64,000 nt of DNA from an uncultured Erysipelotrichaceae bacterium (GCA_900317295.1 ONGB01000005.1:340-64339); one strand, 5' to 3'. Shown: positions 3,652 to 35,938, counted from the first letter of the stretch. Program-made: numbers and translations. Notes: generated by a model from the sequence alone, not told the origin.

Positions 3652-5058
3652 ATGAATAGTTTTTCTTTAAGCCAGTTTTCCCGGCACTACTGCAAAAGGA
3701 AGGGCCTGGGTTCCTTCTCCTTATATTTCGAAAGCGACGGAGAAGAGTTGATAGCTCACAAAATATATTTTGATCCAGTGACATTTTTGGATTTCATCCG
3801 AGATGTGCCGAACGCAAGACTAAACCTTCGAGATGTTCCTCAAATAGTTGCACCAATCGAACTTCGAAATGCCATCATTCAGGCAACCCGCGACAAAGTG
3901 ATTAGAGATGATACCGTCAACGAAAAAATACAGCAATTTATGGCGGTGCACGGCGATAGCCTTGAGACTAACGAGAGATTGCTTTACTTTGCCCAAGGAG
4001 AAAAAGCCGATCGTGCCGAAGAACTGGCGGATAGTCTTAACGAGATATTCTATGGCCTGGCATTTGATTCCAAATCGCGCAGTAATACCCGAAGCGCTCT
4101 TTTCGATGATATCGAAAGGGCTTTTAGCCTGTACGAAGAGGCGGCGAAAGACCCCAAGATTCTTCAAAGTCCCGTCGTTGAGGAGAATATCGATACCGAA
4201 CCAGAACAATATGAGTTTAGGATCTATTCCGTTGGGCAAGCCAATTGCTCGGCGCTGATTCGATACATCGATCAGGACAAAAAGGATTATCGAGTCATCG
4301 TGGTATTCGATTTCGGACGAGCCCGCAGAAAGAGGTCTGCCAATCCCTCCCTCCAAGAGATGATCAATAAAATCGACGACCGCACAACCATACTCATATC
4401 CCATTTTGATAACGACCACATCAACAACATTACCAACTACACGCAAAAGAAGACGGATCGTTGGTTATTCCCGCCGTGCACAAACATGCGATCGCAGAAG
4501 GCAAACTTACTCTTCTATGCTCTTTTGAAATGCGCACAACGGAAAACCAGCAACGGATCGATCAGCATCTATAAAACGCCTTTTAACCTATCTCCGCAAA
4601 TACGCATCACGCAATACAAAGGCACGAGAAAAGGAGACCCTTACCAATCGACCGTTTGCAATTCCGCCTGCCTTGTCACATCCATCCGCGCCGAACACGT
4701 TTCAATCCTTATACCTGCGGACGCTCTCTATGAGGAGTTTGATGCGAGTGTGCAAAACGAATCCTATACACACATACTCATCCCCCACCACGGCTGCTAT
4801 TATCCGCTTGCGGCATGCGGGGCAATATCCAAAATGCTTGATAGCGAAAGAGTACACGGTGTCGTCCAATGTGGAACCAATCGCTATGGCCATGCAAACG
4901 TAGAACACCTTCGCCGATATCGTGACGTGCATTATTTCTATGGGACCAAATTCTATCAAGATAGAAACACCGTCGCGAAAAAACCAAGAAATGCTCACGG
5001 TGGATATGGCGATTACTATTTTATTTCGTTTAATGGTATCAATTGTGGTTACCGTTAA
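3652..5058 (+). CDS. metallo-beta-lactamase-fold protein (ComEC C-terminal-like) with an unknown ~190-aa N-terminal region
   Basis: 468-aa ORF. MBL-like motifs occur in order: FRIYSVGQANCSALI, ILISHFDNDHINN (HxDxDH variant), NSACLV, ILIPADA, LIPHHG. The N-terminal ~190 aa match nothing I recognise. Confidence 0.7.
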   Translation: MNSFSLSQFSRHYCKRKGLGSFSLYFESDGEELIAHKIYFDPVTFLDFIRDVPNARLNLRDVPQIVAPIELRNAIIQATRDKVIRDDTVNEKIQQFMAVHGDSLETNERLLYFAQGEKADRAEELADSLNEIFYGLAFDSKSRSNTRSALFDDIERAFSLYEEAAKDPKILQSPVVEENIDTEPEQYEFRIYSVGQANCSALIRYIDQDKKDYRVIVVFDFGRARRKRSANPSLQEMINKIDDRTTILISHFDNDHINNITNYTQKKTDRWLFPPCTNMRSQKANLLFYALLKCAQRKTSNGSISIYKTPFNLSPQIRITQYKGTRKGDPYQSTVCNSACLVTSIRAEHVSILIPADALYEEFDASVQNESYTHILIPHHGCYYPLAACGAISKMLDSERVHGVVQCGTNRYGHANVEHLRRYRDVHYFYGTKFYQDRNTVAKKPRNAHGGYGDYYFISFNGINCGYR

Positions 5059-28218: not shown

Positions 28219-28312
28219 GTCATTTCCTCCTTTCGGAAATTGCATTTAGTGGTGATCGGGCCGTCGTCAGCGACCCTCCCACAAGTTGCGCGTTGTGAAA
28301 ATGCGCCCGTGT

Positions 28313-28342
28313 ATGATACGCGTGGCAAAAGGAGGCTGTCAA
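28313..28342 (-). promoter_or_regulatory. candidate sigma-70 promoter for rplK-rplA
   Basis: Minus strand: TTGACA, 18 nt, TATCAT, about 95 nt upstream of the rplK start. Confidence 0.5.
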
Positions 28343-28368
28343 GGCTTTTCTAAAGAAAGGGAAAGGTT

Positions 28369-30297
28369 TTAGGAATTGGCCGAAGATTTCTTTGGTTTGG
28401 AGAAGCCCAAGGCCAAAGAACCGAGGATCGTGAGCAACGCCAATCCGGAATCCCCAAGCGCGGAGACCCATAGCGGCAATTGCCAGCCCCCATCGATGGA
28501 GGCCCAGAGGTTGAGCCCCATCAAAATGGCTTTGACGGATAAGGCGAAAATGATGTTGAAGATGACGCGATGACGGGTTTTCCTAGCGATATCCAAAAGG
28601 GCGGGGATCTTCATCAAATCGTCGTCCATGATGACGATGTCCGCGTTGGCGACCGCGAGGTCAGACCCGAGCCCGCCCATGGCGATGCCCACGTCCGCTA
28701 GGACGATCGAGGGGGCGTCGTTGATGCCGTCGCCCACGAAGGCCACCGCGCCTTCTTTTTTGGAGATTTCTTCGCGAATGCGGGAGGTTTTTTCATCGGG
28801 GAGCAAGCCCGCTTCGAAAGCATCGACCCCGATTTCTTTCGCCGTGGATTCCACGACAAGGGGGCGATCTCCGGAAAGAAGCAAAGTGCTGATGTTCTTT
28901 TGGTGGAAATGCGAAATGGCCTTGGGGGCGCTTTCCTTCACTTGATCTTCCAAACGGACGCATCCTTGATAGACATCATCGACATAAAGGCAGACCAAAG
29001 ACCCGGCTTTTCCTGCGTGGGCAGAGGCGTCTTTTGGGGTGCCGGCTTCGATCTTTTTGCCCCGATAAACTAGGCGGACGCCAAAGCCAGGAACCTCCTG
29101 ATAGTCGGAGATTTCTTCTTCCTCATAGGCTTTTTGGAACGTTTGGGCGATGGCTCTTCCCATGGGGTGGGTGGACCGGGATTCGGCGGCGCAGAGATAT
29201 TCTTTGAAAAGGGCTTCATCCAGGTCGCCAAGTTGGATTTCCGCGACGGAGAAATGGCCTTCGGTGAGCGTGCCGGTTTTGTCAAAGGCGATGAGCCGCA
29301 GGGTATTCAACGCGTCGAAGAAACCCGCCCCTTTGACAAGGATTCCTTGCTTGGAGGCGAGCCCCAATCCCGCGACATAAGCAAGGGGAACGGAGATGAC
29401 AATGGCGCAGGGGCAGCTGAGAACTAGGAAGCTAAGTGCGGTATAAATCCAACTGGCCCAAATATCGGCATTCCCCGCGCCTAAAACCAAGGGCGGGACC
29501 ACGGCCACCAGCGCGGCGATCGCGAACACGATCGGGGTATACACCCGCGCAAAGCGGCGGATGAAACGGACGGTTTTGTTCTTTTCCTCGCTGCCGTTTT
29601 CGATGCTTTCCATCAAGCGGGCGACCGTCGAATCCTCATACTCTTTTTCGACGCGGATCTTCAAGGAACCCGAGGCCAATAACGTCCCCGAATAGACGGG
29701 GCTTTCTTTCTCTTTCCCCACAGGGACGGCTTCCCCGGTCAAAGAGGATTCGTCCATTTCCCCTGTTCCTTCCATGACGATGCCATCGCAGGGGCATTTC
29801 TTTCCGGCGCCCAGCACGACGAGATCGCCGACATGGAGATCGACGGGGGATTTCGCGATGAGTTTATCCTCTTCTAAAACGAGGGCTTCCTCTTTCCGTA
29901 AATCGATCGCGGAGACGATGGCTTTCCGAGAACGGGATTCTGCCAAATTCTCAAAAACCTCACCCACTTGATAAAGCAGGATAATCAAGACGGCTTCGAG
30001 GAATTCATTGTGGCCCGGCCCATAAAAGCGCAACGCGAACGCGCCTAAAGAGGCCAAGATCATCAATGTGCATTCGTTGAAGAATTCGCGCTCTTTGAAC
30101 ATCGCTTCGAAGGCTTCGATGTAGATGTCATAGGAGATGAGGATATAAGCCGTCCCCATCACCATCAGGCTCACCCACCAGGGGAAATTGGCTTCGTTCC
30201 AATAAAAATACCCGGCGAGTGCCAAACCCAAAGCCACCGCGCAGCGCAGGGCGAGGATCAGAATCGATTTGAAAGAACGTTCCTCTTCCATCGTCAC
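28369..30297 (-). CDS. heavy-metal P1B-type ATPase (Cd/Zn/Co-type), no N-terminal metal-binding domain
   Basis: 642 aa. CPC motif (LSCPCAIVIS), phosphorylation site FDKTGTLT, hinge GDGINDAP. No CxxC HMA domain at the N-terminus. Confidence 0.9.
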   Translation of the reverse strand: MTMEEERSFKSILILALRCAVALGLALAGYFYWNEANFPWWVSLMVMGTAYILISYDIYIEAFEAMFKEREFFNECTLMILASLGAFALRFYGPGHNEFLEAVLIILLYQVGEVFENLAESRSRKAIVSAIDLRKEEALVLEEDKLIAKSPVDLHVGDLVVLGAGKKCPCDGIVMEGTGEMDESSLTGEAVPVGKEKESPVYSGTLLASGSLKIRVEKEYEDSTVARLMESIENGSEEKNKTVRFIRRFARVYTPIVFAIAALVAVVPPLVLGAGNADIWASWIYTALSFLVLSCPCAIVISVPLAYVAGLGLASKQGILVKGAGFFDALNTLRLIAFDKTGTLTEGHFSVAEIQLGDLDEALFKEYLCAAESRSTHPMGRAIAQTFQKAYEEEEISDYQEVPGFGVRLVYRGKKIEAGTPKDASAHAGKAGSLVCLYVDDVYQGCVRLEDQVKESAPKAISHFHQKNISTLLLSGDRPLVVESTAKEIGVDAFEAGLLPDEKTSRIREEISKKEGAVAFVGDGINDAPSIVLADVGIAMGGLGSDLAVANADIVIMDDDLMKIPALLDIARKTRHRVIFNIIFALSVKAILMGLNLWASIDGGWQLPLWVSALGDSGLALLTILGSLALGFSKPKKSSANS

Positions 30298-30599
30298 TCC
30301 CTTTCAAGGATTTCAACGACGTGTTCGTTCGCCACTTGGAGAAGTTCGATGACGTGATGGTCGGCGAGGGAATAGAACACCCAGGTCTTCTCTTTGCGCG
30401 TCGAAACGAGGTTGGCTTTTTTCAAAACGGCCAGCTGATGGGAAATCAAAGACTGGCTCGCCCCCACCGCTTCCACGATTTCGTTGACCGACTTCTCCCC
30501 ATCGGAAAGGGCGTACATGATCTTCAGCCGCGTGGAGTCGCTGGCGATGTTGAGCATGTTTTCCATGCCGTCGATGATGTTGTCGTTTGGGATGGGCAT
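30294..30599 (-). CDS. ArsR/SmtB-family metalloregulator
   Basis: 101 aa. Winged HTH region: STRLKIMYALSDGEKSVNEIVEAVGASQSLISHQLAVLKKANLV. Overlaps the ATPase start by 4 nt. Confidence 0.88.
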   Translation of the reverse strand: MPIPNDNIIDGMENMLNIASDSTRLKIMYALSDGEKSVNEIVEAVGASQSLISHQLAVLKKANLVSTRKEKTWVFYSLADHHVIELLQVANEHVVEILERE

Positions 30600-30611
30600 A
30601 GGGGCCTCCTT

Positions 30612-30669
30612 AATATGAACACTCGTTCATGTTTCGACATTATTATATGAACGGTTATTCATATTTCAA
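30612..30669 (-). promoter_or_regulatory. promoter with two ArsR-type operator palindromes
   Basis: Minus strand: TTGAAA (30664-30669), 16 nt, TATAAT (30642-30647). IR2 ATATGAA-N6-TTCATAT (30645-30664) lies between the hexamers. IR1 ATGAAC-ACTC-GTTCAT (30615-30630) lies next to the RBS. Confidence 0.6.
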
Positions 30670-30681
30670 GCAAAATAATAA

Positions 30682-31188
30682 TCAGAGATCCAAAGACGTG
30701 ATCAAAGCGTCGTCATAGGCGTTCCTTAGCTCGATGACGCCTTCTTTTATGAGCGCGTACCCGGGCCCGTCATCGCGGGGCAGGGCGATGGAACCTGGAT
30801 TTAGATGAATGATGCCTTGAAAGGAATAAAGCTCTTTCCTGTGGGTATGCCCGTTCACCAACACGGACCCCGGCGGGAAGCTTAGGTAACTGGGATGATG
30901 GGACAAATGGAATTCGTGACCCGAAAAAGATAAGCGCCTAAGCTCGGGCAACGGGAACCCCAATTGATTGGCGTCCCAACGGAAGTCGCAATTGCCCTCC
31001 ACCGCCAAAACGGGAATGCCGATCTCCTTTAGGCCGCGGACGCAATACTCTTCATCGACGTCGTATCCGCCGTGGAGGATGTCGCCCAAAAGCAAAAGGC
31101 AATCCGGCTGGTGTTTTTTCACCAAGCCCTGGATGCGCTCCATGCCGCGCTTGGAGCCGTGCAGATCGCTAACCACGAGGTAGAGCAT
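30682..31188 (-). CDS. YfcE/MJ0936-family metallophosphoesterase
   Basis: 168 aa with motifs VVSDLHG, GDILHGG, GNCD, GHTH. Confidence 0.85.
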   Translation of the reverse strand: MLYLVVSDLHGSKRGMERIQGLVKKHQPDCLLLLGDILHGGYDVDEEYCVRGLKEIGIPVLAVEGNCDFRWDANQLGFPLPELRRLSFSGHEFHLSHHPSYLSFPPGSVLVNGHTHRKELYSFQGIIHLNPGSIALPRDDGPGYALIKEGVIELRNAYDDALITSLDL

Positions 31189-31347
31189 GTTTCGATTTTG
31201 CCACCGAAACCCATTTTTTCAATGCGGTGATACAAAAATTTTTTGAACTTTTTTCTTTGATGGCGTCTAGAAAATTTGGAAACCCGCAAAAATTGTTCGC
31301 CAAATTTGCTCCTTGCTGGGTATAGGAAGGGTGAAAGGCAAAAAACC

Positions 31348-32484
31348 ATGATCGCCCACAAAGTTCTCCTCTACCCCAACCAAGAAGCAGAGGCATTCCT
31401 TCAGAAACAATTCGAGTATGCCCGGCGGGACTATAACCGCCAATTGGAGACCATCGTGCGCGGCATCCAAAGCGGGAAGGTGGACTTATTTAACCTAAAG
31501 AAATGGATGGATGCGGTATACGCTCAGGCAAAGAAGGCGCCGGATTTCTATGACGGGGAAAGCTACCACTACCCCGATATCATTGGGTGGAACAAAAAGC
31601 GGGTTCAAGCGGCGGCCGAGGATTATTTGGCCAACCCATTAAACAAACCGAAATACCTAAAGCATTCAAGATATCGGAAGATCTTCCGTTTGACCTCCGC
31701 TCCGTTGGACGCGCAACGCTTTTCAGTCAGCGAAGACCACCACCTTTTGCTGGGAGGCATGCATCGCATCAAGATGGCGGAGCCCCTGCGCTTCCAAACC
31801 CGCCCCATCGCCTGCGAGATCAGCTTGCGGAACGGTCGTTATTACGCCTCCTTCCTTTTCGCGGAAAACCTTAAACCCTATTTATTGACCGGCAAAACCG
31901 CCGGGGTCACCGTCGGAAGCGCGAGCCTAGTGGCCGTGGCCGATAGCGACGGGAAGAAGGTTCGTTTCGCTTTGGACGCTAAAAAGAGAACCAGAATACA
32001 TAAACGGATCCGTCATTTGGAAAAGATGCTTTCTCATAAGGAAATCGGGTCAGCCCAATACGAGAAAACAAGGGCAAAACTCATGCGGGCAAAGCGAAAA
32101 GAGGAAGACATCATCCGGAATTTCGTTGAGCAGACTAGCCACACGCTCGTCAAAGCCTATGATCGCATCGGAATCGACGATGCCTCTACGCAAATCCGAT
32201 TGATTCAGCACGCCTATGCGAAACCCTATTTGCAAGAACCCTTTTCCGCTTTGTCCAACCGATTGCAAAGCAAGGCGAAATCCCACGGAAAGACGGTCGT
32301 GAAAGTCAAAGACAGACGATCGTCCGCACCCATATGTTCTCAATGCGGGGAGAGAAATAGGAAAACGAAAGGTCTCTCCAACCGCAGATGGGCTTGCCCT
32401 CATTGCGGGGCGGTCCATGATAGCGACCTCGAAGGCGCTGAGAGATTGTGTAAGGAGGCCCTAAAACAAGAAAGACGTATTTAG
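31348..32484 (+). CDS. TnpB-like (IS605 OrfB / Cas12-ancestor family) protein; RuvC-I Asp apparently replaced
   Basis: Start set at MIAHKVLLYPNQEAEAFLQKQFEYARRDYN, a typical TnpB N-terminus. C-terminal Zn finger CSQCG...CPHCG followed by HDSDLEGAERL. The expected GxDxG strand reads AGVTVGSASLVAVADSDG. Confidence 0.75.
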   Translation: MIAHKVLLYPNQEAEAFLQKQFEYARRDYNRQLETIVRGIQSGKVDLFNLKKWMDAVYAQAKKAPDFYDGESYHYPDIIGWNKKRVQAAAEDYLANPLNKPKYLKHSRYRKIFRLTSAPLDAQRFSVSEDHHLLLGGMHRIKMAEPLRFQTRPIACEISLRNGRYYASFLFAENLKPYLLTGKTAGVTVGSASLVAVADSDGKKVRFALDAKKRTRIHKRIRHLEKMLSHKEIGSAQYEKTRAKLMRAKRKEEDIIRNFVEQTSHTLVKAYDRIGIDDASTQIRLIQHAYAKPYLQEPFSALSNRLQSKAKSHGKTVVKVKDRRSSAPICSQCGERNRKTKGLSNRRWACPHCGAVHDSDLEGAERLCKEALKQERRI

Positions 32485-32662
32485 AAAGACTTGCCAAGAA
32501 AGATTCCGGGCGGGGAACGCCCATTTGAGAACGCACGAGGGGCCCACCCAGACCCCGATTACCGCGTTGAGGCTAAGCCTAGGCCATTGTCCACCGGCTG
32601 ATGCGATGCCATTCCAGTCATATTTTCCATACAAAAAGGGGCGAATCCTCTATAATGCCCCC

Positions 32663-33262
32663 ATGACCATCCAACATTTCGAAGAACTGCTCGACTGCTT
32701 CGACTACACCGTGCGCAATTGGTTGCGCTTCGATGCCAACGAAGGACAACGGAACGACGCCATCACCATCTGCGCCGCTTCTGCTTTCCTATTTGATAAC
32801 CTCTTCGCCAAGAAAAACGAAGGGGCGGCCTTAACCGCCGCGGCGGCGAAAGAATTCTCCTCTTCGGACGCCTTTGATCCGAAGGCCTTGCCGGCGATGG
32901 CGACGAAGATGCGCCTAGCGATGTCTGGCGACGATTTTGAGATGGGAAAATCGCCGTTGCGCGATTATCTCCGTTGGATCTCGCCCACCGAGCCTTCCGT
33001 CATGACCGCCTATGCCGATTACGAAGGAAAGCTCGCCCTCCAAACCGCAGAAGAAATCACCAATCTCCTCCTGCAGGAAAACGACGCGCACGAATCCCCG
33101 ATGCATGTCGCGGAACTGGTGTTCCTGAACGTCTTCCAGTTATTTGATTCGTTCTACAAAGAGTTCTACGGAGTCGCGGGATTCCGGGAAAAGAAATCCC
33201 ATGCCTGCTTCGCTTCCGTCATTGAATCGATGGAGAACATCCGAAAAACGATCGCCGATTAA
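32663..33262 (+). CDS. hypothetical protein
   Basis: Start set at ATG 32663 (MTIQHFEELLDC), 6 nt after a TATAAT at 32651-32656. No recognisable family. Confidence 0.5.
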   Translation: MTIQHFEELLDCFDYTVRNWLRFDANEGQRNDAITICAASAFLFDNLFAKKNEGAALTAAAAKEFSSSDAFDPKALPAMATKMRLAMSGDDFEMGKSPLRDYLRWISPTEPSVMTAYADYEGKLALQTAEEITNLLLQENDAHESPMHVAELVFLNVFQLFDSFYKEFYGVAGFREKKSHACFASVIESMENIRKTIAD

Positions 33263-33265
33263 TAG

Positions 33266-33297
33266 AAAAACGAGCCCCTTGCTGGAGGCTCGTTTTC
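33266..33297. terminator. bidirectional rho-independent terminator
   Basis: AAAAACGAGCC-CCTTGCTGGA-GGCTCGTTTTC, between the convergent 32663 gene and nusG. Confidence 0.7.
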
Positions 33298-33304
33298 TTT
33301 TGCA

Positions 33305-33880
33305 TTAGATGCGCTCGATTTCGGAGAATTCGACGTCGACCGGGGTGCTGCGCCCGAAGAAGATCGTCTCAACGCGGCAGGCGCCGGTCTCTTTGTCGAT
33401 GGAGATGATGGTGCCTTCGGTGCCTTCGAGCGGACCATGGATGATCTTAACGGCGTCGCCGACGTTATAGCGTTCATACATGCTCTCTTCGATGAGGTTC
33501 ATCCTCTTGAGGACGGGCTCGATTTGCTCTCTCGGGACCGGAGCGGGCTTTTGTCCGCCGCCGGAGGAACCGACGATGCCAGTGACGCCCGGGGTGTTAC
33601 GGACGATATACCAGGATTCATCGGTCATGATCATCTCGACGAAGAAGTAGCCGGGATAGTAGTTCTCGGTTTTGGTCTTGCCAGTGGGTTCGCCGTCTTT
33701 GAGGACGGGGACTTCATGCTCGGCGACCAGGACGCGAAGGATCAGGTCCTTCATGTTCATGGAGTCGATACGGCGGATCAGGTTCTCGGCCGTTTTCGCT
33801 TCGTGTTTGGAATAGGTGGTGACGATGTACCACGCTTTGTCGCCTAATTTGGCGGCTTTGTTTTCTTCAGCCATGTTCAA
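33305..33880 (-). CDS. nusG: transcription termination/antitermination factor NusG
   Basis: 191 aa with NGN (WYIVTTYSKHE) and KOW (VGDAVKIIHGPLEGTEGTI) regions. Confidence 0.95.
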   Translation of the reverse strand: MNMAEENKAAKLGDKAWYIVTTYSKHEAKTAENLIRRIDSMNMKDLILRVLVAEHEVPVLKDGEPTGKTKTENYYPGYFFVEMIMTDESWYIVRNTPGVTGIVGSSGGGQKPAPVPREQIEPVLKRMNLIEESMYERYNVGDAVKIIHGPLEGTEGTIISIDKETGACRVETIFFGRSTPVDVEFSEIERI

Positions 33881-34072
33881 TTACCTCTGGAACGCATTTC
33901 TCAATTGGTTGATCAGCGAGGCGGCGGTCAAATCCTCCAAGGTGAGGAAGAGGGCCGCGAAGGCGCTGATGATGATGACGACGACGATGGCGGGGATGAG
34001 CTGATCGCGCTTCGGCCAGCGGATGCGCCGTCCTTCTTTAACGACTTCTTTGGTGTACTTTACTGGATTCAT
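33881..34072 (-). CDS. secE: preprotein translocase subunit SecE
   Basis: 63 aa with a single TM helix (LIPAIVVVIIISAFAALFLTL), in the conserved position before nusG. Confidence 0.9.
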   Translation of the reverse strand: MNPVKYTKEVVKEGRRIRWPKRDQLIPAIVVVIIISAFAALFLTLEDLTAASLINQLRNAFQR

Positions 34073-34081
34073 AGTACCTCC

Positions 34082-34231
34082 TTATTTGCTCTGCTTGTGG
34101 ACGGTGTGCTTTCCACAGTGCGGGCAGAATTTGCTGAGCTCAAGACGTTTGGGGTCTTCTTTGCGTTTCATCACGGTGTAGTTTCTGCTCAAGCATTCCG
34201 TGCAAATCAAAAAAACCTTTTCCCTACCCAT
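34082..34231 (-). CDS. rpmG: 50S ribosomal protein L33
   Basis: Own translation (below the ORF-track size cutoff): [49 protein letters not shown]. Confidence 0.9.
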
Positions 34232-34255
34232 CTTTTATTCACTTTCAGCGTGGAA

Positions 34256-34284
34256 ATCATAGGCGCATAGGCGGGGGTTGTCAA
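34256..34284 (-). promoter_or_regulatory. candidate sigma-70 promoter for rpmG-secE-nusG
   Basis: Minus strand: TTGACA, 17 nt, TATGAT, about 25 nt upstream of the rpmG ATG. Confidence 0.5.
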
Positions 34285-34322
34285 TGCTTTCCACGAGGGT
34301 TTTCTTTCGTGGAATCGCATCG

Positions 34323-35165
34323 TTATTTGCTGGGATCGTTTTCCCCGCCAACGAGCCCCTTTTTCTTCCTTCTTTTTCTTTTCCACCGCCCCATCTTCCC
34401 AGCGTTTGCTTTCACCGAAGCGAGCCCCTTTAGATATGAGCGATCTAACCCCAATAGATCTTGGGCTTGAGAGGAAACCAAATAGGCTTGGACGTCTCGA
34501 ATGGCGTTTTTCACCCGATAGATCGTGCAGCGGAGCTTTTTGGCGATTCCCGTGACGGCAAGCCCCTCCATCCGGAGCTGGATGATCCTCGCCGTCCATG
34601 GGTCGAATTGTGGAGGCAGATGCAAAAGGAATTCCAGCTGTTCCGCGACCTCCACTTCTTCTTCCGGCGCGGGGAAGGAGGACGGAATGATGTCGCATAG
34701 GCAAGGTGTCTCCGGATCGTTAGGCACAGGATGACTCAGTGAAAGATACCCTTTGCTCCGGTTGAGGTAATCGTCTTTTCGAAGGAGATTCAGCAAGGCG
34801 TTTTGGAAAATCCGGTTGAAATAGGTGCGGAATTTGCATTTGCCGGGGACATAGCTATTCAAAGCCTTCATGAAACTGGTCAGAAAAAGGCTTTCGATGT
34901 CTTGGGGATCCATCTTGGCCACATGGGCGCGGCCGAGGGTCGCATACGCCAAGAAGACATCGTCCCCTTCATAGCGTTTGAAGAGGTCTCCCCAGTAGCG
35001 GCGGTCATGGAGGGCGCCGATCAGATGAAGGTCTTCGTCCGTCAGTTCCTCCAGTTTCAAATTGCCGGCCTTTTCCCGCTTTTTGATCAAGGCCAAGCGC
35101 TTATGCAAAAGTTCTTTGATCTGCGCCGGGGCATGAAAAATCCCGGCTCGTTTATCGGTAATCAT
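34323..35165 (-). CDS. sigma-70-family sigma factor (SigH-like by position), with a basic C-terminal tail
   Basis: 280 aa. Region-2-like DIESLFLTSFMKALNSY...FRTYFNRIFQNALLNLLRK. Region-4 HTH IIQLRMEGLAVTGIAKKLRCTIYRVKNAIR. Sits where B. subtilis has sigH, upstream of rpmG. Confidence 0.7.
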   Translation of the reverse strand: MITDKRAGIFHAPAQIKELLHKRLALIKKREKAGNLKLEELTDEDLHLIGALHDRRYWGDLFKRYEGDDVFLAYATLGRAHVAKMDPQDIESLFLTSFMKALNSYVPGKCKFRTYFNRIFQNALLNLLRKDDYLNRSKGYLSLSHPVPNDPETPCLCDIIPSSFPAPEEEVEVAEQLEFLLHLPPQFDPWTARIIQLRMEGLAVTGIAKKLRCTIYRVKNAIRDVQAYLVSSQAQDLLGLDRSYLKGLASVKANAGKMGRWKRKRRKKKGLVGGENDPSK

Positions 35166-35221
35166 TTTATTTAATGGCGAAAAAAGCGAATCTCGCTTTC
35201 CCCCTTTCTCAGTAATAAAAA

Positions 35222-35938
35222 TTAAAGCCTACGAAGTAGGTCGATCTGGGAAATGACGATCCCCGCCGAAACGGAGGCGTTGAGCGAATTCACGTGCCCG
35301 TGCATGGGGATTTTGACGATCTCGTCGCATTTGGATAAAACGGCATGGGAGATGCCGAAGCCTTCCGAGCCGATGACCAAAGCCATCGGACGGCGATAGT
35401 CGACCGATTCGACATTCTTCTCGGCGCTGCCTTCCGCCGCCACGATGCCATAGCCGGCATCCCGAAGTTCTGAAATCGCCTGATTGAGGCTCGGCACCAC
35501 GGCGACGTCGACATATTCGATCGCGCCGGTGCTGACGCGGGCGACCGTCGCATTCAAGGGGACCTCCCCTTTGCTTTTGACGATGAGCCCATCGACCCCA
35601 AAGGCATCGCAGACGCGCAAAACGGCGCCGAGGTTATGCGGATCTTGGATTCCGTCGAGGATCAAAACCAAAGGAAGGGGTTTGCCCTGGGCTTTGGCGA
35701 TGATGTCGTGGACGGAGCAAGGTTCCTTTTCGGCGCTGAGGGCCACGATTCCCTGATGTTTGTTGGCCCGGCTTAGAGTGTCCAACTCCTGTGCGCTTGC
35801 CAACTTGACAGGTATTCCTGCCTTTTTCGCTTCGACTACGAGGAAAGATTCCTCCTTGGAAGCGAGGTAATAAAGTTGAGAGACATTGCCAACTCTCAAA
35901 GATTCGCGAATGGAATTGATTGAGGTCAAAACGATCAT
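35222..35938 (-). CDS. rlmB: 23S rRNA 2'-O-methyltransferase, TrmH/SpoU family (RlmB-like)
   Basis: 238 aa with SpoU motifs (LILDGIQDPHNLGAVLR, LVIGSEGFGIS, IPMHGHVNSLNASVSAGI). Confidence 0.88.
   Translation of the reverse strand: MIVLTSINSIRESLRVGNVSQLYYLASKEESFLVVEAKKAGIPVKLASAQELDTLSRANKHQGIVALSAEKEPCSVHDIIAKAQGKPLPLVLILDGIQDPHNLGAVLRVCDAFGVDGLIVKSKGEVPLNATVARVSTGAIEYVDVAVVPSLNQAISELRDAGYGIVAAEGSAEKNVESVDYRRPMALVIGSEGFGISHAVLSKCDEIVKIPMHGHVNSLNASVSAGIVISQIDLLRRL

Follow-up and report, generated by a model that had tools for sequence, protein, structure and literature searches.

A TnpB homologue with a substituted RuvC site, retained at one chromosomal locus in uncultured gut Bacilli, as a probable TldR-like RNA-guided regulator

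The tnpB-like gene and its locus

The subject of this report is a solitary gene related to TnpB, the RNA-guided nuclease of IS200/IS605 elements, which lies on the forward strand of a 64,000-nucleotide (nt) stretch of DNA from an uncultured Erysipelotrichaceae bacterium (GCA_900317295.1, ONGB01000005.1:340-64339), hereinafter the window. An initial annotation, made from the sequence alone, had noticed that the first catalytic aspartate of the RuvC nuclease domain is substituted in its product, and had raised the possibility of an RNA-guided regulator akin to the TldRs, repressors that are TnpB-like and nuclease-dead. Our analysis indicates that the gene, together with an omega-RNA-like scaffold immediately 3' of it, has been kept at one orthologous site in a whole clade of related species, and that it probably encodes a domesticated, RuvC-inactivated TnpB acting as a regulator of this type. 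The features on which the argument turns, with positions counted from the first letter of the window, are the following:

31348-32484, forward strand: TnpB-derived, putatively TldR-like gene of 378 amino acids (aa), from Pfam, NCBIfam, the ISDra2 alignment, AlphaFold2, Foldseek and the ratio of non-synonymous to synonymous substitution rates (dN/dS)
32508-32616, forward strand: omega-RNA-like guide-RNA scaffold, from conservation and covariation in all 10 loci
32617-32640, forward strand: putative guide, starting GTCATATTTTCC, placed from where the guides lie in homologous sister loci; start and length approximate
30682-31188, reverse strand: YfcE-family phosphodiesterase gene (PE), the divergent upstream neighbour, from Pfam Metallophos_2 and the NCBIfam YfcE subfamily
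31189-31347, forward strand: upstream intergenic region between PE and the tnpB-like gene, a probable left-end remnant plus promoter, from motifs recurrent in the orthologs
32651-33262, forward strand: promoter -10 element (TATAAT, 32651-32656) and the apparently leaderless unknown gene (UNK; ATG at 32663, 199 aa, ending at 33262), the conserved downstream neighbour

The open reading frame is real and intact, running for 378 codons from an ATG at 31348, and its orthologs likewise all begin MI(A/T)HK. Its product is matched above the cut-offs by three Pfam models (HTH_OrfB_IS605, OrfB_IS605 and Cas12f1-like_TNB) and by the NCBIfam model guided_TnpB (128.6 bits against a cut-off of 100), and phmmer aligns it with the TnpB of ISDra2 (8BF8/8EXA/8H1J) at an E-value of 6e-22. 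An AlphaFold2 model computed from an alignment of 70 homologs (predicted local distance difference test score 90.1; predicted template-modelling score 0.83) has ISDra2 TnpB (8H1J) and ISFba1 TnpB (8IAZ) as its best solved counterparts in Foldseek, with template-modelling scores of 0.69-0.75; Fanzor2 and Cas12f rank next, and Cas12m and Cas12k stand lower in the list. The zinc-finger cysteines C330, C333, C350 and C353 are encoded within 32335-32406. Pfam, NCBIfam, phmmer, AlphaFold2 and Foldseek bear out the TnpB-family fold (WED/REC, RuvC and zinc-finger TNB), of which the initial annotation had described the N-terminus, the middle and the C-terminal zinc finger. The proteins of this locus are compact and of full length (378-385 aa), and their identity to any TnpB cluster beyond their own clade is only about 25-30%.

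Substitution of the RuvC catalytic residues

The phmmer alignment pairs AGVTVG with AGVDVG, IGIDDA with IIGTEH and HDSD with HDRD of ISDra2 TnpB; in the numbering of the initial annotation, D191, E278 and D361 of the latter correspond, respectively, to T188 (codon 31909-31911), D277 (32176-32178) and D360 (32425-32427). A Thr and no Asp therefore falls at the RuvC-I position in this alignment, and the alignment of 70 TnpBs tells the same story for both substitutions that had been proposed: at RuvC-I, 65 of the 70 have D, and T is confined to this protein, P0002 (its cluster representative at 98%) and P0003 (a 66%-identical relative); at RuvC-II, 67 of the 70 have E, and D occurs in those three alone. 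As for the third aspartate, D360 is indeed kept in its HDSD context; what the first reading missed is that the surrounding RDxNAAxNI motif has decayed to SDLEGAERL, with four near-invariant RuvC-III neighbours replaced (R359 by S, N362 by E, A363 by G and N366 by R).

These states are stable. No Asp codon can be reached from the T188 codon, ACC, by fewer than two base changes, and ACC is also present in a 99%-identical strain (L025) from an independent metagenome. Further, T188, D277 and D360 are invariant across 13 variants at the strain level (97-100% identity) as well as in two proteins of the 66%-identical lineage, and all 15 of these variants are 378 aa long with zero indels, even as they span 34% amino-acid divergence. 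The motifs hence suggest that this copy is nuclease-dead, its cleavage activity having been lost.

Loss of mobility and vertical inheritance

The assembly (1.6 Mb in 91 contigs, 91% complete) holds a single TnpB-family gene and a single copy of the RNA scaffold, and no match to the Y1_Tnp profile of the Y1 transposase TnpA was found anywhere in it. Thus, the lack of an adjacent tnpA, noted initially, extends to the entire assembly, and a count of copies, which had been suggested as a check, returned no set of identical elements. The remark that no obvious insertion sequence (IS) ends are present turned out to be half right, as the right-end omega-RNA scaffold is clear at 32508-32616. In short, the gene at 31348-32484 is a former mobile element that is mobile no more: it is a single copy, at an orthologous site and apart from any TnpA, as is the case for TldRs, and has neither the D-E-D triad nor the mobility of an active IS200/IS605 TnpB.

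To place the locus in evolutionary terms, we used 58 species representatives of the uncultured gut Bacilli genus concerned, one member of which is labelled Candidatus Enteromonas. A single-copy ortholog is found at this locus in nine other species, giving 10 bearers in total, and in none of the remaining 48 of the 58. In seven of the nine other bearers tnpB lies between PE and UNK in the same orientation as UNK. In one of the other two (G070) it is still divergent from PE, with the PE-tnpB pair inverted relative to UNK; in the other (G035; L095, G035:C46:21000-31000) PE has been lost, and an inverted pair of ArsR and P-type ATPase genes is found between the omega copies and UNK. The surroundings are not specific to this genome: the gene order nusG-UNK-PE-ArsR-P-type ATPase-rplK-rplA is common to the genus; a block of about 5 kb (28246-33304 in the window) separates nusG from rplK in the loci examined genus-wide, with the ATPase wanting in four of the bearers (group B, below); and UNK, for which neither Pfam nor NCBIfam offers a family, is present in 53 of the 58 genomes (52 of the 57 other species) irrespective of TnpB. 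In most TnpB-free species PE and UNK are divergent and separated by a gap of 38-54 bp. Consequently, the idea that this copy sits in a new context did not hold up: the arrangement is genus-wide, and catalytically intact sister orthologs occupy the same site.

The 10 bearers are monophyletic in a tree of PE and UNK (support 0.925) and in a tree of RpoC (support 1.0), and by RpoC score the nine other bearers are the nearest nine relatives of this genome. The TnpB tree, rooted with other TnpBs, recovers the same topology, namely (ours and P0003, (group B and P0008, group A)), with the caveat on this congruence that the markers all come from the same contig region, 1-14 kb from tnpB. The gene has been kept in 10 of the 10 sampled species of the clade, which differ by about 18-26% in RpoC. 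The congruence of the trees of TnpB, the flanks and RpoC is most simply explained by a single insertion in the ancestor of the clade, followed by vertical descent with zero losses in the ten descendants sampled. The locus of P0003 is not found among the 58 genus representatives, and the Joint Genome Institute metagenomes yielded only the 99%-identical strain L025.

Intact and inactivated orthologs

The orthologs fall into catalytically distinct sets. The five members of group A (G014, G063, G009, G070 and G035) retain D-E-D, whereas the four of group B (G004, G021, G029 and G032) have P in place of the RuvC-I D and N in place of the RuvC-III D. Given that our lineage (D to T, E to D) and that of group B with P0008 (D to P or N) lie on different branches, the sequences indicate that the RuvC site was lost at least twice, on separate branches, after the gene had been fixed at this site. 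P0008 itself, a 36%-identical protein of 390 aa from a European Nucleotide Archive metagenome, branches as the sister of group B. Of its catalytic triad only the RuvC-I residue is changed, to N, and the protein may mark a less advanced state of the inactivation seen in group B.

By Nei-Gojobori estimates, dN/dS is 0.08 between our copy and strain L025 (14 synonymous and 4 non-synonymous differences) and 0.10-0.16 within the dead group B, as compared to 0.10 for the intact pair G014/G063. The dead copies are under purifying selection. What differs between dead and intact copies is where the constraint falls. In pairs of intact orthologs conservation is higher in the C-terminal RuvC/TNB half, with a ratio of N-terminal to C-terminal identity (N/C ratio) of 0.77-0.91; between our copy and P0003 the N-terminal half is 78% and the C-terminal half 56% identical (ratio 1.41), and between P0008 and group B (G021) the ratio is 1.46. 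The close dead pair G004/G021, at 87-88% identity, has a ratio of 0.99 and hence no such flip. In solved TnpB structures the N-terminal half holds the RNA and recognizes the target-adjacent motif (TAM) and the heteroduplex. The shift of constraint to this half is thus what is expected if catalysis was lost, with RNA holding and DNA recognition being kept.

An omega-RNA-like scaffold downstream of the gene

In all 10 orthologous loci a conserved element begins 16-27 nt past the stop codon; in the window it spans 32508-32616. A GGGCG/CGCCC hairpin opens it on the 5' side and a conserved terminal CCATTCC motif closes it; between the two lie a pair of nested helices and a variable 3' module. Over 11 copies, 10 of the 16 predicted pairs show compensatory changes and 96% of the cells are paired; none of 500 shuffles reaches the observed covariation score and none of six slid registers comes near it. 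Folding of the 3' region as a single sequence does no better than shuffles (z = 0.57), so that support for the structure comes from covariation alone, and an Rfam scan of 30000-35500 at E<=1 returned no family. The conservation of the primary sequence is likewise striking: between our locus and that of L025 there are no differences in 179 downstream positions, as against 6 in 159 upstream and 5.6% at synonymous sites, and for group B about 95 nt of scaffold contain 1 mismatch, as compared to a synonymous difference of 0.44. We read 32508-32616 as a putative omega or guide-RNA scaffold, with the guide likely starting from about 32617; at the sequence level, the adjacent omega-derived scaffold typical of TldRs is present.

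The scaffold has multiplied in two of the species with intact genes. The loci of G035 (L095; G035:C46, oriented 4010-4640) and G070 (L094; G070:C21) carry 2-4 tandem omega scaffolds 3' of tnpB, and in G035 this coincides with the rearrangement of the locus described above. Three extra scaffold copies are followed by a segment that matches the antisense strand of the 3' coding region of rpoA (L100:1501-1516), with 16 of 16 positions identical to G035's own rpoA and, for the G070 copy, 21 of 22 identical to the rpoA of G035. These extra scaffolds could be a natural multi-guide array or remnants like palindrome-associated transposable elements (PATE-like).

Guide and target candidates

In the arrangement described for TldRs, an adjacent guide is paired with a TAM-flanked target in a promoter (10.1101/2023.11.30.569447); guides of only 9 nt occur, and a target can also be situated downstream of the start site (10.64898/2026.09.22.753285). 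A candidate for such a pair is found in a sister lineage. In group B, the first 15 nt past the scaffold (GATGAAAAGATTTTT) match exactly over the -35 region of the promoter of pyrG, which encodes CTP synthase, in both G029 and G021; G032 agrees at 14/15 positions and G004 at about 13/15, and in G029 a longer stretch matches at 21/23 (L151:1501-1523, G029:C6:27847-27869; also L152, L154 and L155). Before the site stands ATTTTC (in G004, ATTTTT), a T-rich TTTTC is also seen where the elements have their conserved upstream boundary, and at up to 3 mismatches this is the only other match in the group B genomes. The group B guide and the pyrG promoter are thus a candidate TldR-type pair. The match was found post hoc and, the four species being close relatives, counts as one observation.

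The putative guide of our copy extends into the -35 region of the UNK promoter. Its search against the genome of origin, in contrast to that of group B, produced nothing over chance, be it with exact 11-13-mers of the guide region, with 16-mers matching at 13 or more of 16 positions (up to 3 mismatches) over 26 offsets, with seeds anchored on TTGAT or TCGAT, with the 24-mer at up to 3 mismatches, or with the 22-mer, allowing 6 mismatches at most or requiring 11 or more of its first 12 bases. These searches recovered no TAM-flanked or otherwise significant match to the guide from the 91%-complete assembly, the best hits being at chance level or marginal; a target could lie in the missing part. 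Two weak leads may be mentioned: a 13-nt identity starting from the scaffold/guide junction, antisense in a holB-like gene (C67:1948), for which the expectation is about 0.05 at that single offset; and a 9-nt identity (AAAAGGGGC), 17 nt past the presumed start of the guide, to the -35 region of the organism's own pyrG promoter, a length that 38 of 1000 shuffles attained when that promoter alone was searched.

Other candidates were set aside. The motifs TTGAT and TCGAT, taken as the TAM from the conserved TT(T/C)GAT 5' of the gene, gave no target here; the pyrG match of the sister lineage suggests TTTTC instead, and this motif too yields no target in this genome. The rpoA gene was considered by analogy with G035 and G070, and its 3' region in this organism has no match to the guide. 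A 17/18 match (C59:4419) was judged a chance hit: it falls within coding sequence, and what it matches is the conserved scaffold end rather than the guide. An 18/22 match (C90:7683) is also at chance level and falls among DnaA-box-like repeats 5' of dnaA, arising because the putative guide contains a similar TTTTCCATA. That region (G000:C90:7640-7900), with its cluster of TTTTCCACA-like DnaA boxes, is likely oriC.

A probable TldR-like regulator and its alternatives

Taken together, we consider it probable that the protein is a domesticated TnpB, inactivated in RuvC, that acts as a TldR-like RNA-guided DNA-binding regulator; correspondingly, the clade looks like a new one among the TldRs, a likely assignment on the sequence-level traits. 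TldRs are a recently recognized class, and most of their clades are still without an assigned role (10.64898/2026.09.22.753285). As in the fliC-, oppF- and csrA-associated clades (10.1101/2023.11.30.569447, 10.64898/2026.09.22.753285), we observe the TnpB fold with conserved RuvC-inactivating substitutions, a gene that has parted from TnpA and no longer behaves as a transposon, an omega-derived scaffold beside it, and intact TnpBs branching beside dead ones; in the sister dead lineage, group B, the guide also matches the -35 region of a promoter, with a T-rich motif adjoining. Thus, four sequence-level marks of a TldR (the fold, conserved RuvC loss, transposon loss and an adjacent scaffold) are found in this copy. 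On these grounds the regulatory proposal of the initial annotation gains from the conserved substitutions, single copy, absence of TnpA, fixed site, purifying selection and covarying scaffold, and lacks a matched promoter target in this genome; that we still favour it is because the guide of the sister dead lineage matches the pyrG promoter.

Briefly, we advance the following plausible course of events. An IS200/IS605-type tnpB with its omega RNA, devoid of tnpA, would have been inserted once between the back-to-back promoters of PE and UNK in the ancestor of the subclade, where it was presumably fixed and then passed on vertically. In our lineage RuvC would have been inactivated by D188T, E277D and the decay of RDxNAA, with the N-terminal half (the wedge and recognition, or WED/REC, domains), the zinc finger and the guide-RNA scaffold staying under selection. 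The complex would most likely bind DNA complementary to the roughly 10-20 nt past the scaffold (from ~32617) without cutting it, and so might serve as a TldR-like RNA-guided repressor or roadblock. RNA-guided DNA binding and repression by this copy are thus predictions from its sequence and from that of its relatives.

Several observations weigh against this proposal. The searches turned up no convincing target of the guide in the assembly. Unlike many known TldRs, this copy is of full length, with the zinc finger and the RuvC-III strand kept and no C-terminal truncation; it is not phage-borne; and it resides, vertically inherited, at one orthologous chromosomal site in an uncultured gut Bacilli host with a small genome. 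No newly acquired accessory gene is present whose paralog would indicate a target, as PE and UNK are neighbours with or without TnpB and also flank the intact orthologs. The case for nuclease loss rests on motifs, with D360 and the zinc finger retained and E to D being a conservative change. Finally, the intact orthologs have been retained as stably as the dead ones, so that a copy need not lose its nuclease to be retained here, and selection could be acting on a role other than repression.

The last point leads to the main rival explanation, to which we assign a minor but real share of the probability: the protein-RNA pair might be kept for a function other than guide-directed repression of a promoter. 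For example, the omega RNA could be a small or antisense RNA that the TnpB-like protein stabilizes or processes, or the complex could act in cis on the two leaderless promoters of PE and UNK, e.g., by binding its own guide-encoding DNA over the -35 element of UNK. Such a function is consistent with the want of a trans target in this genome, with the overlap of the putative guide and the UNK promoter region (32617-32656), and with the equal retention of dead and intact orthologs, which suggests that the function may not need RuvC; likewise, the candidate matches for type-2 scaffolds, being antisense within coding regions (holB here, rpoA in the sister species), would also fit RNA-RNA pairing. 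However, the most constrained part of the protein is the N-terminal half of the TnpB fold, the one that engages RNA and target DNA, and the sister dead lineage has a promoter-type match with a plausible TAM. The version acting in cis faces the further difficulty that self-targeting normally fails, there being no TAM beside the guide-coding DNA.

It is unlikely, and we disfavour the idea, that the locus is merely an immobile IS remnant, a solo tnpB in slow decay with no host function, its substitutions being early marks of pseudogenization. It would account for the absence of TnpA, the single copy, the loss of catalytic and neighbouring motif residues, the faster evolution of the C-terminal half and the missing target; yet it is at odds with a frame that is intact and free of indels in 15 variants across 34% amino-acid divergence, dN/dS values of 0.08-0.16, retention in all 10 sampled species despite their RpoC divergence, and a non-coding scaffold far more conserved than synonymous sites and furnished with compensatory pairs. 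Least probable of all is that the protein remains an RNA-guided nuclease in which another acidic residue (D199 or D201 in the adjacent hairpin, or D278) compensates for T188, as in the rearranged RuvC sites of some TnpB and Fanzor proteins: D277, D278, D360, the zinc finger and the overall fold are all there, and the TldR literature warns that single-residue calls can mislead and that substituted DDE sites can stay active with Mn2+, but the missing residue is the RuvC-I Asp, present in 65 of 70 relatives and with no described relocation to our knowledge, four more near-invariant residues of the RuvC-III motif are replaced, and it is in the dead lineages specifically that the RuvC half has come under weaker constraint.

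Relation to other RNA-guided systems

With the ISDra2 TnpB and the IS200/IS605 nucleases at large (8BF8, 8EXA, 8H1J), the TldR-like protein proposed here shares its domain order, its fold and a guide RNA at or after the 3' end of the gene, and sister species hold catalytically intact (D-E-D) orthologs of this very locus. It differs from them in having T-D-D as its triad, in the absence of TnpA, and in being a single copy with no sign of mobility and a host-like, vertical mode of inheritance. Cas12c, Cas12m, Cas12k and the dCas12f-sigma E system are likewise RNA-guided members of the RuvC family that have been repurposed for binding over cutting; in contrast to these, the locus studied here has no CRISPR array or partner proteins, appears to rely on a single fixed adjacent guide, and encodes a much smaller protein.

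More tentatively, we raise a wider scenario, which is less likely than not: the TnpB/omega pair may have been domesticated before the loss of nuclease activity, then inactivated twice, independently, at the same site, with its guides being re-aimed at core housekeeping genes, i.e., the pyrG promoter in one dead lineage, the 3' coding region of rpoA in the extra omega copies of two intact species, and another target in our organism, for which holB and pyrG are the weak leads. Were this true, TnpB-derived ribonucleoproteins would be regulators of central metabolism, or of the machineries for transcription and replication, in gut bacteria with reduced genomes, and intermediate steps of the transition from TnpB to TldR would be visible in an orthologous context. 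The presence of intact and dead orthologs at one site, with two inactivations, a measurable shift in constraint and a conserved scaffold, makes for a clean comparative system. It bears on which change comes first in the switch from nuclease to regulator, on whether domestication precedes the loss of cleavage, and on how guides are re-targeted.

Flanking promoters

The upstream intergenic region (31189-31347) includes a T-rich tract ending in TTTTC-TTTGAT (~31248-31261) and a TATAG -10-like element (31321-31326), both of which recur 5' of all 10 orthologs; it may accordingly comprise a left end, a TAM or a promoter. Both neighbours of the tnpB-like gene look leaderless throughout the genus, with a -10-like hexamer 6-10 nt 5' of each ATG (31189-31222 and 32651-32665 in the window; loci L028-L056). 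A 16-nt identity (TATAAT, five bases, ATGA) links 32651-32666 to the start of another gene on the reverse strand elsewhere in the genome (G000:C69:12798-12813); it probably reflects a common leaderless layout of promoter and start rather than homology.

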